A DNA stretch of 63,132 nt, counting the filler, from Rhabdomonas costata (Eukaryota): NCBI GenBank assembly GCA_019059605.1. It is 48 parts of 48 records of this genome, joined end to end, with 100 filler letters (N's around TTAATTAATTAA, not from the genome) between each part and the next. Parts side by side here need not be neighbours in the genome. Positions count along the whole stretch, not along the records: positions 34,263 to 35,480 come from JAHMHO010023202.1; 47 more parts are not named here. One strand, written 5' to 3'. Under the pieces are notes generated by a model. The model did no database searches, was not told the origin of the DNA, and was given only the letters and a program-made list of their open reading frames with translations. Both the position numbers and the translations under genes were made by a program. The first letter of the stretch is position 1, and each line of letters opens with the position of its first letter. Below are positions 33,736 through 62,509 of the stretch, piece after piece.

Positions 33736-34443
33736 GTTCCGCTGTGCCCGCCGCATTGGAGGCCTCACCTTTCCCAGCGGTATGGAATCAGTTCCCGTCG
33801 CATTCATTTTTTTGATGGGAATTATTGGCGGGAGTGGGAAAAGTAACCTGTGCGGACTTTCGAAGTCGTGCATCTGGCTGGAAACGGGGAATTATTGGCG
33901 CAATAACTGGTCGTTGCACGGTTTGGTTCGACGCAGCCCGAGGTGTCAGCAAGAATTCGCCCAACAGCTCAGCCCCTCGGTTGATCCTTCTTGTAAAATT
34001 CGGTGTCTCTTCGAGTGTCAATCTGCAGATTGCAGTCGAACTATATTTAGAAAGTCGTGCTCAAATTTGATCGGTGTCCGTCGATTCACTACTTGGGCTT
34101 ATTTCACATTTACGGCTCTCAACCTTGTCAATCATTAGATCCACCGGGTCGTCCCACAAACCNNNNNNNNNNNNNNNNNNNNNNNNNNNNNNNNNNNNNN
34201 NNNNNNTTAATTAATTAANNNNNNNNNNNNNNNNNNNNNNNNNNNNNNNNNNNNNNNNNNNNTTTTGTTTTTTGTACCGGGGGTTTTTTCACCGTTTTGT
34301 GCACTTGTTTTGGTGAGGTCGAGTTTGGGTCGGGCAGTCCTGCAGGTATTGTTTTGGGTGACCTTGACCTCCATTGGTCCTGTTGGTCGCGTTGGTCCTG
34401 CGCACACGAGATGCACCGCCCACTTCTCCAACCAACGTCGTAG

Positions 34444-34545
34444 GGTGTCCAGGACCTAATTGGGGTGATCGAGCACTTCACGCAGTCCGTGGTGATCTCC
34501 ATCGGCAATGGCCCGAACGACCAGGACTTCATTTACCTTAAGAAG
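34444..34545 (+). CDS. ADSS: Adenylosuccinate synthetase (kinetoplastid-type), C-terminal exon of unit 1, no stop codon
   Basis: GVQDLIGVIEHFTQSVVISIGNGPNDQDFIYLKK matches the ADSS terminal motif (IE..T....ISIGNGP....IYL). Bounded by TAG and AAG|GT. Confidence 0.85.
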
Positions 34546-35029
34546 GTTGCTCATGACCCTTCACGCCCAGGCTGCTTCGTTCACCCCACAGACACTCGCC
34601 AGCGCGCACGCACACCCCTGCTATCTATCTGTGGCATCCCAGAGACTTCTTTTCTGCCCTCCTGATTTTGAACTGTTAGCATCCTCCCTCTCCCTCTTAT
34701 CTATCTTCTTGTGCAGAAACTGTTGCTGTTGTTGACCGAGGCATCAACATCGGGCTCTTTCGTGTTTTCGGGGAATGATTTGTGGATTGAGATGCCGGTG
34801 TATTCCCTCAGTTTCGGGCTAAGTGCCATTCTTCCTGTTGACTGATGAAAAGGCGCCGCTCCCTGTTACTTGCTCTGAGATCTGGGACCGTTCCTCGCGA
34901 TTATTGTGTGTGGAGGATTTGGCCCCAGCCCTTTGTGCCCGTACAGCGAAGCAGCACAGCCTGGCGGGGAGGCCCCGCATTGGTTACGGCGGCACCACCA
35001 CCACCACTACCGCCACCACCACCCAACAG

Positions 35030-35449
35030 ATCGAGGCCTCAGCGATGAACGCCGACCTGGCGCGCAACATGGCGGTGTACGAGGGCATCAAGGCCCTGCC
35101 CGTGCTGCCCGAGCTGAGCTACACCAGCCCCGCGCAGTACGATGAGGGCAGTGCCGAGGCCACGCTGTTCCCGCTCATTGATAGCCACGACGTCATCGCC
35201 ATCTGCGGGTGCTACTTCGGCGACGAGGGCAAGGGCAAGACCGTCGACGACGTCTCCAAGCACCCCAAGATCGGTTTGGTGGTGCGCACCAACTCCGGCG
35301 AGAATGCCGGCCACACGGTGTACTTCAAGGGCACGAAGTTTGTGTTCCACCTGGCGCCCTCGGGGCTGTTCAAGGGCAAGGTCAACCTGATCGGGCCGGA
35401 GTGCGTGATGGACCCGGTGAGCTTCATGGACACCGAGATCCAACCCCTG
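35030..35449 (+). CDS. ADSS: Adenylosuccinate synthetase (kinetoplastid-type), N-terminal exon of unit 2
   Basis: YFGDEGKGKTVD P-loop, RTNSGENAGHTV, KFVFHLAPSGL, IGPECVMDPVSFM; ends at the donor CTG|GTAAGT. Confidence 0.95.
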
Positions 35450-35820
35450 GTAAGTCTTATTTCTCTCCCACCCCACCACCNNNNNNNNNNNNNNNNNNNN
35501 NNNNNNNNNNNNNNNNNNNNNNNNTTAATTAATTAANNNNNNNNNNNNNNNNNNNNNNNNNNNNNNNNNNNNNNNNNNNNGTTTTTGGGTGGCCCTACAC
35601 GGCAATTAATGGTTGTGAATCGGGAAAACTTGCATCACCCAGCATTTCTCTTTCTTTATCTAAGACGTCTTGAGAAAATGGAGTGCGGGATAGCTTACGC
35701 TGAGGGCTGGCTGGCTCCGGGAAAGTCGACCAAAAGCCAACCAACTATTAACCGCCTGACAAGCAACCTTACGCATCGCATCGCATCGCCTGCCATCGTT
35801 CTCCCTTCTCTTCCGCACAC

Positions 35821-36786
35821 CTTGTACGTAAACGCGGGGCAGGTGAAGGTCCCCTGGCCATGGAAGGCGTCCTCCAGGAACTCCCCAGCGTAAGAGGAGC
35901 CATCGGCGTAGCTCATCGTGCCCGACCCCTGCACACCCCAATATTGGCACACAAAGGAATCAAGCAACGAACAAAAGAAGGAAAAAACGAACGAACGGGT
36001 TTGTCTTCAGCAACGGAAGCATACACCTCCAGTAAACTCTGCCAAAAGCAGGTTTTTCAAATCGGGCTTGGAATGAATGAGTGCGTGGGTTTCCCCTGCA
36101 ATCTCCTCCCTTTGCGTTTTCCCACACTTCCTCCACATTTCCGCATGGGGTATCTTTTTCTGTGGTGGCTGCTCTTTCGAGTCACTCAAGAGTGCAAAAA
36201 AAAAAACGAACAACAGGGAACGTCATCAGTGAAACAAACCTGCACATGACAACAATGAAAACAAAGCTTCCCGCCTGGGGTATGGCCGCCCATCGCATTG
36301 CAATGTGTGATCAGCTCAGCCCATCCCCTCTTGAACCAACCAAGCGAACCCTCTTTACAGATCCTCCACTTTACAGGTACTTCCACAGCAACGCAGTTGA
36401 AAGGAAGTTGAGGCATTCCAGAGATTTTTGTATTGTTTTGTATTTGTTCTGCCTTTCCTCAAATCGAAAGGAAAGCACATAGTCCAACATGACTGAAGCG
36501 CACTATAATGCAGTACTTTGAACCCTTTCTTGCCCAAAGGGGGTCGAAAAGCTCCGTTGGAAAGCTGGCTAAACAGCCAGACCTGCTTCTTTCCCCGGAC
36601 GAAGTGACCCTCGTAGGTGCCCGTCTTGTCCGTATATACCCCGCGGCCGTGCGGGGCGTTGTCGACCCAGGTGCCGCGGTACTGCGTGCCGGCCTGCAAG
36701 TTAACGCTGGTGCCCTGCCCGTGGCGCACCCCGCGCTGCCACTCCCCCTCGTAGACGTCGCCCCGCTGGTGGTTCACAAACCGCCC
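35821..36786 (-). CDS. MORN-repeat protein fragment (spliced)
   Basis: Exons ~36786-36583 and 35928-35821, phase 0: YEGEWQRGVRHGQG, YRGTWVDNAPHGRG, YEGHFVRGKKQ|GSGTMSYADGSSYAGEFLEDAFHGQG. Confidence 0.92.
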
Positions 36787-37299
36787 CACCACACCANNNN
36801 NNNNNNNNNNNNNNNNNNNNNNNNNNNNNNNNNNNNNNNNTTAATTAATTAANNNNNNNNNNNNNNNNNNNNNNNNNNNNNNNNNNNNNNNNNNNNGGGT
36901 GGGTGGGACATCTGATGGTTGGTACCGGTGGGCTGGTGAGCTGGTTCTTCGAGCGGGTAGGTGCACATCGCGCTTTTGGGTTTTTTGTGCCACCGTTGTT
37001 TTTCCGCGCTTTTTGGTCGTGTGATTCATCATCAGTGGGCGGTTAGGAAGGGTCTCGTGTGGATCGTGTTTCCTTCGTCCGCTGGGTTCTTTCACCGCTG
37101 AACGGCGGATAGCTGTGGTCCGTGGTCCGATTGCATTCCATCTTGCCCATTTTCGGCCGTTGTTTCTCGGAAGGGCTTTCCTTCGCTTTTCTTCTTCTTC
37201 TCCTGCTCCAAGCCCGGGGTACGTAGGCGGGGCTGCAGATCCGTTGTTCCTTTTCTTTTCTGTCGCAACTTCGGAGGGCTGGGGTGGGGCTGCCTATAG

Positions 37300-38562: not shown

Positions 38563-39385
38563 CTATTGCACCGGAGGAGGTGCCGTGGGGAGAGCTTTCC
38601 GAAGCCACCGGATATGGTCCGAGACGTGGTCCCCGTACTGCCTGAGGACCTCAGGGAGAGCCCAGTCGTCGCCCCGGACCTCCCCCCGGCAGCCCTTCGC
38701 GCCGCACATGCACTGGAAGGGCTCCCCGTCGACCACGAAGGTGGCGTAGTCGATGGTGATCTCCTCCCCTTCGCGGATCGCGCGGCGGGCCACGGTGTTG
38801 AGGCCTACCAGCCAGGTATTGGGCTCGCAGCTGTGGTTGATCGGCATCCACTCCTCGGGGTCCTTGCTCCACGTCACGAAGGTCCCCGGCGACAGCGGCC
38901 AGGCGTACCTCCGGAAGTCTCGCAGCTGCTCAGGGGAGAAGGTGCGGAGGATGTGCTGCAGGGAGGCGATCACGGTGGGCTTCTCCTCATTGACCTGCAC
39001 CACCTCCCCGGCAGCAATGTTCCGAGTGGCGAACAGCCCGAAGCCCCCCGCCTGGGAGTGCACCACCTCGTACGGGATGGCCCGGGCGTACTGGCGCTTA
39101 ACGGAAGAAAAGTTTTTTGAGGGACATTATTCGGGACGCTCCAGCTGCACCTTGAAGGACTCTCCGGCGGGAAACTTGCACTCCACGGGGAGAAACGTCA
39201 GCGGGGATCTGGGGTCCGCGGGATTCTCGGCAACCAGCACAGTGAACTCGCGGCCCTCGATGAACTCCTCCACCAGGACTTCCCCGAACATACCAACCAT
39301 CCGTTCAAGCTCGCGGGCCAGCCCAGTGATGTCCGTGACCCGAGAGTTGGGAGTTAGCCCAATGCTGTGCACCCCACCCTCCATC
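38563..39385 (-). CDS. D-Ala-D-Ala-ligase-like ATP-grasp fragment fused to SET + post-SET domain (C-terminal part)
   Basis: Exon ~39385-39151: SIGLT..SRV...VLVEEFIEGREFTVLV...PVECKFPAGESFK. 54-nt GT-AG intron at 39150-39097. Exon 39096-38563: GFGLFATRNIAAGE, INHSCEPN, EEITIDY, FQCMCGAKGCRG, stop. Confidence 0.88.
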
Positions 39386-61187: not shown

Positions 61188-62509
61188 CCTTGGTTTTCAT
61201 GTGCTACGCTTCATTTTCAACATTTGAACTCACGAGCATTTTTATCAGCTGTGGCGCAGACAATCTCGTCACGTTACAGCCACGGCTACTGGTTGCGGCC
61301 AACCCAGGAAGGCTACGTCAGCTAATTTGTGGCCTGCAGCCACAGCATTTTCAATAAGCCATTTGAATATGTATCAAAAGGCTTTATGAGTGTTAGCTTC
61401 AGTCGAAAAAAAAGTTGCGCACTCTATGGCGGGTTTTCCACTGCCGGAGTTATTAATGGTTTATTGCGGGTAGGTTGGTTGCAGTGTTACCAGAAAAAAT
61501 CTCATTTATATTGACAAAGGAGGTTTCAAGGCACCGATACCACGAAATGGCGCTAATCGCTATCTTGTGATTTTTCCAATCTTGGCTGAGAAAAGGCTAA
61601 GAAAAAATATACACTCCCGTGTAGTGGTCCAGGAATCAGGTACCTTGGCCAAAGTTAACCCGGGTCGGGCTGGGGATGCAACCGGTTCGGCTCCAGTGAT
61701 GTTGAGTGGAGGAAGCCTCGACAGCATCTGCGCGACCGCATGCTCAAATGCCCAACCACGCAGAAACTACCACAGAACGGAAATGGCAAATCTGCGAAAC
61801 AAAGGGGCGGAACAANNNNNNNNNNNNNNNNNNNNNNNNNNNNNNNNNNNNNNNNNNNNTTAATTAATTAANNNNNNNNNNNNNNNNNNNNNNNNNNNNN
61901 NNNNNNNNNNNNNNNGTGTGGGTGTGTTTGGTGTGGGGTGTAAACAGGGCGAACGAGCGAAAAACTACACTGGATTCCAGGGGCTGCGAAAGCTGTTGGT
62001 GCGACCGCGGAGTGGGAGTGGATACCGTATTAAACAACAGCGATATCATTGCCCATTATTTCAATGCGAATGGGTAGCAAAACTCTTGCTGTTGGAATTC
62101 GTCACCCGTAAACCCAGTTGAACGGGAAACTTTGTCAAGTTAACTCTCAGTTAAAGCGTCTTGTCCGTTTTTATGCACCTTCTCTGCAGTGTTGAGTACT
62201 TCTTAAGTTTTTTCAGCTGTGTGTATCAATGACAAAATGAATGGTACCAGGAACAGGAGTGCTCGTCGGGGCAAGGTTTTTCCCTTTTGCTACCCACACA
62301 CATTCAGAGGCACCAATGATTTCTTAAAATCCTCGTTTTCGGTGCATGATCCCCTCAAGTTCAATGCCCCTGCCCCGAATTTCGCCACAATTTTCACTTT
62401 TCTCGCCACTGGGAAAGTAGGTCTTAAATCGAGGCGAGGGGACTTGCTGTCCTTTCTCCATTTAAAGGTCTCCTGTGTTTTACTTGTGTGCATGCTCTTG
62501 TCTTTCCAG

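Follow-up and report, generated by a model that had tools for sequence, protein, structure and literature searches.

Euglena species produce several plastid proteins from multi-unit precursors. The precursors of RBCS, LHC and chloroplast PGK (cpPGK) consist of head-to-tail copies encoded in one nuclear open reading frame (ORF) without stop codons between them, and the euglenid polyproteins known so far (RBCS, LHC, cpPGK) are all plastid-targeted, as stated in the available portions of PMC4938576 and PMC7729029. As many as eight units make up such a precursor, which is cleaved within the plastid. The units are joined by a conserved decapeptide; according to the accessible text of PMC4938576, this RBCS linker is identical in E. 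gracilis and E. longa except for one residue. Here we describe a likewise head-to-tail arrangement of adenylosuccinate synthetase (ADSS), a purine-synthesis enzyme, in Rhabdomonas costata. In a window of 63,132 bases (the whole stretch of DNA that was analysed), a single contig (positions 34263-35480, 1,218 bp) carries the C-terminal end of one ADSS unit upstream of the N-terminus of another, and several relatives possess in-frame two-unit ADSS ORFs. In the reading that we favour (with a probability of roughly 0.5), the spacer between the two pieces is a conventional intron, and the units form one chain that stays whole as a cytosolic, single-chain ADSS "dimer". Whereas the plastid precursors have many units and a conserved linker, only two units and no presequence were seen for ADSS, and the ADSS linkers are not conserved.

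Every copy in a kinetoplastid-style tandem array has its own stop codon. The copies in these arrays likewise follow each other head to tail on the same strand, with a pyrimidine tract and an AG before each of them (PMC8061765, in the part available), whereas the ADSS junction lacks a natural stop and is read through in relatives. The ADSS proteins of Trypanosoma, Leishmania, Bodo saltans and Entosiphon sulcatum belong to the same family (PF00709) and have the same long form (~580-710 residues), but each consists of one unit with its own stop. Furthermore, there are natural fusions among adenylosuccinate lyase (ADSL), ADSS and HAD hydrolase, in which consecutive purine steps are joined: the ADSL-ADSS(-HAD) proteins P0228 (1219 aa) and P0240 (982 aa) and the ADSS-HAD protein P0267 (846 aa). 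ADSS is likewise chained to another enzyme at the same pathway step in these proteins; however, as hetero-fusions they possess just one ADSS domain, of the short type, and contain no ADSS repeat.

Two ends of ADSS on one contig

The upstream piece is encoded on the plus strand at 34444-34545 (34 codons, GVQDLIGVIEHFTQSVVISIGNGPNDQDFIYLKK); it follows an AG at 34442-34443 and ends with ...ISIGNGPNDQDFIYLKK without a stop. The initial annotation had recognized here an ADSS C-terminus ahead of an ADSS N-terminus on the same strand, and this order is confirmed by alignment, tblastn and PF00709. Its further statement that the upstream unit ends without a stop at a GT (34546) is borne out by the reading frame, in which GTTGCT follows directly at 34546 and the first stop is the TGA at 34663-34665. 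In the alignment it corresponds to the 34 C-terminal residues of the relatives and ends one residue before their stop, and it possesses the conserved ADSS C-terminal end ...ISIGNGP.....IY[LIV]. Alignment, tblastn and the GC content at third codon positions (GC3) all identify it as the last coding exon of the upstream unit. The sequence before it (34263-34443, plus strand) represents the 3' part of the preceding intron: it ends with ...CGTCGTAG, has an in-frame TAG just 5' of the exon, and does not encode the ...PLPK found upstream in the aligned relatives.

The downstream piece (35030-35449, plus strand) is in the same phase and follows a CAG at 35027-35029. Its frame, IEASAMNADL...GDEGKGKT...EIQPL, comprises 140 codons, i.e., a 15-nt leader (IEASA), the ATG of the downstream unit (35045-35047, plus strand) and 134 further codons. 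At 35450 it is followed by GTAAGT, with which the 5' part of the next intron begins (35450-35480, plus strand). This first coding exon of the downstream unit matches positions 2-77 of 416 of Pfam PF00709 (E 1.1e-22, 80.8 bits, cutoff 27) and contains the motif GDEGKGK (35219-35239, plus strand), which we take to be the GTP-binding P-loop of ADSS. When five relatives were compared with the whole window using tblastn, the N-terminal piece was matched with E values of 1e-49 to 9e-57 and the C-terminal piece with 9e-11 to 1e-8 (best match of each relative). The two-unit and junction-bearing queries gave weaker second matches to the C-terminal piece (up to 2e-4), and no other match to ADSS was found with these queries in the 63,132 bases. 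The 34-residue C-terminal piece alone has no Pfam match at E <= 1. Altogether, the contig encodes 34 + 140 codons of ADSS; a complete unit would have ~580 residues.

The window consists of 48 contigs of 1,214-1,218 bp each, roughly sorted by length, and 47 identical 100-bp linkers (44 N, TTAATTAATTAA, 44 N) located at 1219-1318, 2537-2636 and so on up to 61816-61915. The contigs are unrelated, and gene order or any feature spanning a linker is an artefact. As both ADSS pieces lie within a single contig, bordered by the synthetic linkers at 34163-34262 and 35481-35580, concatenation is not the source of their arrangement.

The window ADSS is most similar to long-type ADSS (580-710 residues); the best four of 225 matches are P0001, P0002 (EukProt Euglena longa), P0003 and P0004 (EukProt Entosiphon sulcatum), with 59-68% identity. 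A quick maximum-likelihood tree (38 rows, with the window row covering only 27% of the columns) places the window ADSS in a 9-row clade together with Entosiphon, E. longa and two further lineages (Shimodaira-Hasegawa-like approximate likelihood ratio test (SH-aLRT) 98), but outside a 7-row group that comprises E. longa and these two lineages. This position is that of a euglenid-like lineage which is not closely related to Euglena itself. A search of the PDB revealed no structure of a long-type ADSS; the best match (E 2.7e-28) covers the N-terminal third only.

Two-unit ADSS in relatives

The initial annotation proposed a tandem ADSS in one frame. Such a design exists in relatives, as seen in P0002, P0168, P0001, P0166 and at the break of P0167; the splice in R. 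costata itself is what we infer. Two or more stop-free units in one ORF are found in P0002 and P0168, P0001 and P0166 cross the junction, and in the window the same would result from the proposed splice. The E. longa protein P0002 (1057 aa) contains two PF00709 stretches in one transcript ORF with no intervening stop and the junction ...FIYI-QRASASPAVPSSAPKQVTADF-ANGD.... As its units are only 87.7% identical over 456 residues, the ORF does not represent a single unit looped by the assembler. The header of this record reads 'complete, len:1185', i.e., 128 residues beyond the 1057, and the additional residues probably represent the missing N-terminal part of unit 1, reaching back to a point some five residues ahead of the F-x-N-x-D start motif. 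The header length and the alignment of the units thus suggest that the complete E. longa ORF has exactly two units and no room for a presequence. In P0168 (1125 aa, same 90% cluster as P0003) there are likewise two PF00709 stretches in one ORF, with KKIAAKKVEQEIPLDITQS between the units.

P0001 and P0166 (transcript-like, from contigs of 2,529 and 2,609 nt, respectively) both start with ...VISIGNGPNADNFIYLKK and run via VGGTQEAEEVAANFP into a full unit ending with FIYVNSC-stop; the linker between ...FIYLKK and the next unit has 16 residues in both. The genomic protein P0167 from the same cluster (335,392-bp contig) starts with MSFPNAD and reads ...FIYLK followed by VCCVSSVMDDVYLF-stop (VCCVSS...), where the transcripts of this cluster read ...FIYLKKVGGTQ.... 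This difference suggests an intron beginning with GTnTG at the site of the GT in the window. P0165 is the unit following P0167 and ends with a stop, and judging from these sequences the lineage appears to possess a two-unit gene with an intron exactly where the window has its GT. Three related lineages have no stop between the units, two of these have no Met at the junction, and the terminal units of the closest clade all stop three residues after FIY[LVI].

P0001 also links the inter-unit linker to an N-terminal stretch that is otherwise present on the first unit (P0167). It represents either a third unit in that lineage or a chimeric transcript contig of near-identical units.

Among 164 fetched homologues, the C-terminal motif precedes the P-loop in P0001 and P0002 only (P0166 and P0168 were added by cluster look-up), and none of the other 162 scanned has two units. 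A search with P0003 for longer proteins returned only P0002 among 6325 candidates. A metagenome scan with P0001 gave 133 pattern matches, none of which was confirmed, and a scan with alignment A2 revealed no two-unit ADSS in 28 metagenome loci (identity to P0003 of 43-60% when the longest segment per locus is considered, and of up to 71% in short, exon-sized segments). The library representatives yielded 8318 matches at E <= 0.001; the best 150 include three proteins longer than 689 residues, all of them hetero-fusions, in a search in which the euglenid cluster itself was absent from the matches and the best match had 50% identity. P0123, a candidate with 92% coverage of the junction query, was rejected, as it is a monomer whose N-terminus is long. 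In a local MAFFT trial on the two-unit chain, unit 2 attracted all 100 monomers, so that the alignment depth at unit 1 was only two.

The spacer and its possible readings

In the favoured reading, the contig would represent the border between two tandem units of one long-type (euglenozoan) ADSS gene. The upstream unit would have lost its stop codon and end in a 5' splice site, and the 484-nt spacer (34546-35029, plus strand, GT at 34546 and CAG at 35027-35029) would be removed through a C-rich tract and CAG acceptor a few codons before the downstream ATG. Both units would then be translated as a single chain of ~1,180 residues. Since ADSS works as a homodimer, this chain would most likely be kept whole, folding as a cytosolic single-chain "dimer" rather than being cut into monomers.

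The missing stop is the first point in favour of this reading. The C-terminal tails of 164 family members were examined, 114 of which have the C-terminal motif; 86 of the 114 end at most six residues after IY[LIV], with a median of three. The upstream exon of R. costata has no stop at this natural C-terminus and continues directly with GT. If the spacer were retained, the upstream unit would be closed by the TGA at 34663-34665 (plus strand), 39 codons further on, in a stretch of non-coding composition. In fact, GC3 is 28/34 in the upstream exon and 131/140 in the downstream exon (together 159/174), whereas the read-through tail reaches only 21/39 (Fisher p 2e-7); it is 50-59% in each of the three frames of the whole spacer. 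The non-coding character of the tail after KK argues against a read-through ending. A SET-domain ORF elsewhere in the window (PF00856, E 3.3e-12; 38566-39126, minus strand, 187 codons), used as a composition reference, is a further example of high coding GC3 (0.87).

The acceptor at 35030 is preceded by a C-rich tract (34993-35027, plus strand, 22 C of 35) and CAG, as is also the case at 3' splice sites of E. gracilis. These two signals are common to outrons and introns in this species (PMC11170887, as far as its available text goes), so that the site suits cis- and trans-splicing equally. The initial annotation regarded CAG|ATC (35029/35030) as the next acceptor in the same phase; the phase is correct, but 21 AG dinucleotides (34571-34972) come before the AG at 35028-35029. 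Its linker of ~5 aa holds if 35030 is used, a choice made by eye, whereas acceptors at 34952 or 34955 (spacer end at 34951 or 34954) would lead to a linker of ~31 aa instead of IEASA. The stretch 34823-34951 has a GC3 of 25/43 (p 1e-6 versus the exons); 34952-35029 is exon-like (22/26, p 0.28) and encodes QHSLAGRPRIGYGGTTTTTTATTTQQ in phase. Two interpretations of these 78 nt upstream of 35030 are conceivable, namely a CCA-repeat pyrimidine tract and a linker rich in Thr that would be reached via 34952 or 34955. Fusion of the units results from any in-phase acceptor.

The spacer was also considered as a euglenid nonconventional intron, for which the accessible part of PMC11170887 describes CCAGG at +3..+7, CCTG at -9..-6 and base-paired intron ends. 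The spacer (34546-35029) has the ends GTTGCTCATG and CACCCAACAG, which lack these motifs, and a pairing of only -0.7 kcal/mol, and this possibility was rejected.

Several points weigh against the fused reading. In R. costata the head-to-tail junction rests on a lone short-read contig of 1,218 bp. Seven in-phase acceptors (34853, 34880, 34916, 34952, 34955, 35030 and 35036) keep the frame open into the ATG, and the chance of being in phase and open over five codons is roughly 1 in 4. In addition, a well-placed out-of-phase acceptor at 34947 would lead to a Pro-rich tail with a TGA overlapping the ATG. The donor GTTGC is weak: it agrees only at the first two of five positions with GTGTG, the E. 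gracilis 5' splice-site consensus given in the available part of PMC11170887. The downstream ATG is kept 15 nt after the acceptor, as expected of a spliced-leader acceptor with a short 5' untranslated region, and tails of at least 41 residues do occur in 6 of the 114 family members. As for the relatives, the two-unit total of E. longa is based on the record header and the alignment for the first 128 residues, and the placement of P0165 and P0167 on one contig was inferred solely from their equal contig size.

A +1-frame ORF (34842-35048) ends in a TGA overlapping the downstream ATG (ATGA, 35044-35047). It is relevant only if acceptor 34947 is used, and the overlap is probably a coincidence.

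The weak donor, the long tails of some relatives, and the ATG that follows the C-rich tract and acceptor so closely would fit separate tandem genes as well. The upstream mRNA would extend to the TGA at 34663-34665, with poly(A) addition in the spacer, whereas the downstream mRNA would receive a spliced leader at 35029/35030 and be translated from the ATG at 35045; such separate mRNAs might also be produced alongside the fused one. Euglenozoa are indeed described as polycistronic, with transcripts resolved by spliced-leader trans-splicing (PMC8061765, available sections), and the 3' signals common to E. gracilis outrons and introns (PMC11170887, see above) are those expected here, although the same signals serve cis-splicing. 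However, the read-through tail is non-coding in its GC3, and the terminal units in the closest clade end right after FIY[LVI]. Moreover, the inter-unit stop is missing in three related lineages and the junction Met in two, and P0167, compared with the transcripts of its cluster, points to an intron at exactly this site. We regard separate genes as unlikely.

A processed polyprotein would use the same fused ORF, but a protease would cut the linker and release ordinary ADSS monomers, as happens with the known Euglena RBCS, LHC and cpPGK precursors; the initial annotation had drawn an analogy with the LHC and RbcS polyproteins. That euglenids make and process multi-unit precursors is documented in the available portions of PMC4938576 and PMC7729029, and the in-frame multi-unit ADSS ORFs of relatives agree with such a precursor. 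Furthermore, the P0001 linker joined to a P0167-like N-terminus could mean more than two units. Nevertheless, the analogy does not hold in its details. The linkers QRASASPAVPSSAPKQVTADF, KKVGGTQEAEEVAANFP, KKIAAKKVEQEIPLDITQS and KK|IEASAM have no motif in common with each other or with the plastid decapeptide NMAAMTGEKD, and they vary between 8 and 21 residues across four lineages (8 in the window with 35030 as acceptor). The processing known so far occurs within plastids, and the accessible text of PMC7580956 reports that both Euglena species lack purine enzymes in these organelles. No plastid-type presequence was found on P0167, P0003 or P0004; P0167 starts with MSFPNAD, similarly to MDFANAD of Entosiphon, and thus probably has none. 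The unit counts deduced from P0167 + P0165 and from the E. longa header length fit two units. The linkers without a common motif or length, the plastidial site of known processing, the lack of a visible presequence and these counts together favour a whole, cytosolic chain over a cut one. The best reading is that the design is not a plastid-type polyprotein, and processing to monomers appears improbable.

A further possibility concerns the origin of the fusion. A tandem pair might have been fused by outron-to-intron conversion, in which a new upstream donor would turn a spliced-leader acceptor and its 15-nt leader into an intron end and a mini-linker. As the acceptor is still leader-like and the ATG is kept, one locus could yield both a cis-spliced dimer and a trans-spliced monomer, the balance between them setting the association state. 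Conrad, Blumenthal and co-workers reportedly showed in the early 1990s that outrons and introns can be interconverted in engineered C. elegans genes. There, an upstream 5' splice site decides between cis- and trans-splicing, which would explain how a leader acceptor became an intron end; however, those were engineered nematode genes, whereas ADSS would be a natural case. To our knowledge, no natural gene fusion by outron-to-intron conversion is known, and we put this scenario forward tentatively, as a doubtful one.

An assembly artefact (a chimeric or collapsed short-read contig) or a relic (a dead C-terminal exon left by partial duplication upstream of a single-unit gene) is very improbable: the assembly is very strongly fragmented, as the 48 contigs of ~1.2 kb in the window show, but AG and GT flank the exon exactly at the limits of homology, the exon-like GC3 (28/34) and the conserved ISIGNGPN...FIYL motif are retained, the same head-to-tail order and break point occur in independent relatives, and the contig has neither internal repeats (beyond one 15-nt pair) nor end overlap. 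Circular permutation, the other alternative of the initial annotation, is ruled out by the complete consecutive units of the relatives.

Two-unit ADSS and the wider family

Elsewhere in the window, two MORN-repeat ORFs (PF02493) are encoded on the minus strand at 35698-36006 (E 1.4e-7) and 36358-36795 (E 1.4e-13); as they belong to separate contigs, their adjacency is without meaning. A search of the whole window against Rfam gave no match. With regard to the long-type family (entries P0153, P0006 and P0051 of the quick tree), the ADSS of Bodo saltans virus branches within the kinetoplastid/bodonid clade, a position that suggests its capture from the host. Long-type ADSS labelled as Woesearchaeota or Nanoarchaeota form a separate sister group in this tree, so that the long form is not confined to eukaryotes.

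A two-unit ADSS appears to be present in E. longa, two or three other relatives and R. costata. The design was not found described for ADSS: full-text searches across the main texts of openly accessible papers returned no report of a multi-unit ADSS. If the favoured reading is true, a two-unit and apparently cytosolic purine enzyme would carry the multi-unit design of euglenids outside the plastid, in a form apparently common to several euglenid lineages. The protein would represent a natural single-chain version of an obligate homodimer and would bear on the control of ADSS through dimerisation. Finally, a junction intron exactly at the position of a spliced-leader acceptor would provide a concrete case for the fusion of trans-spliced tandem genes.

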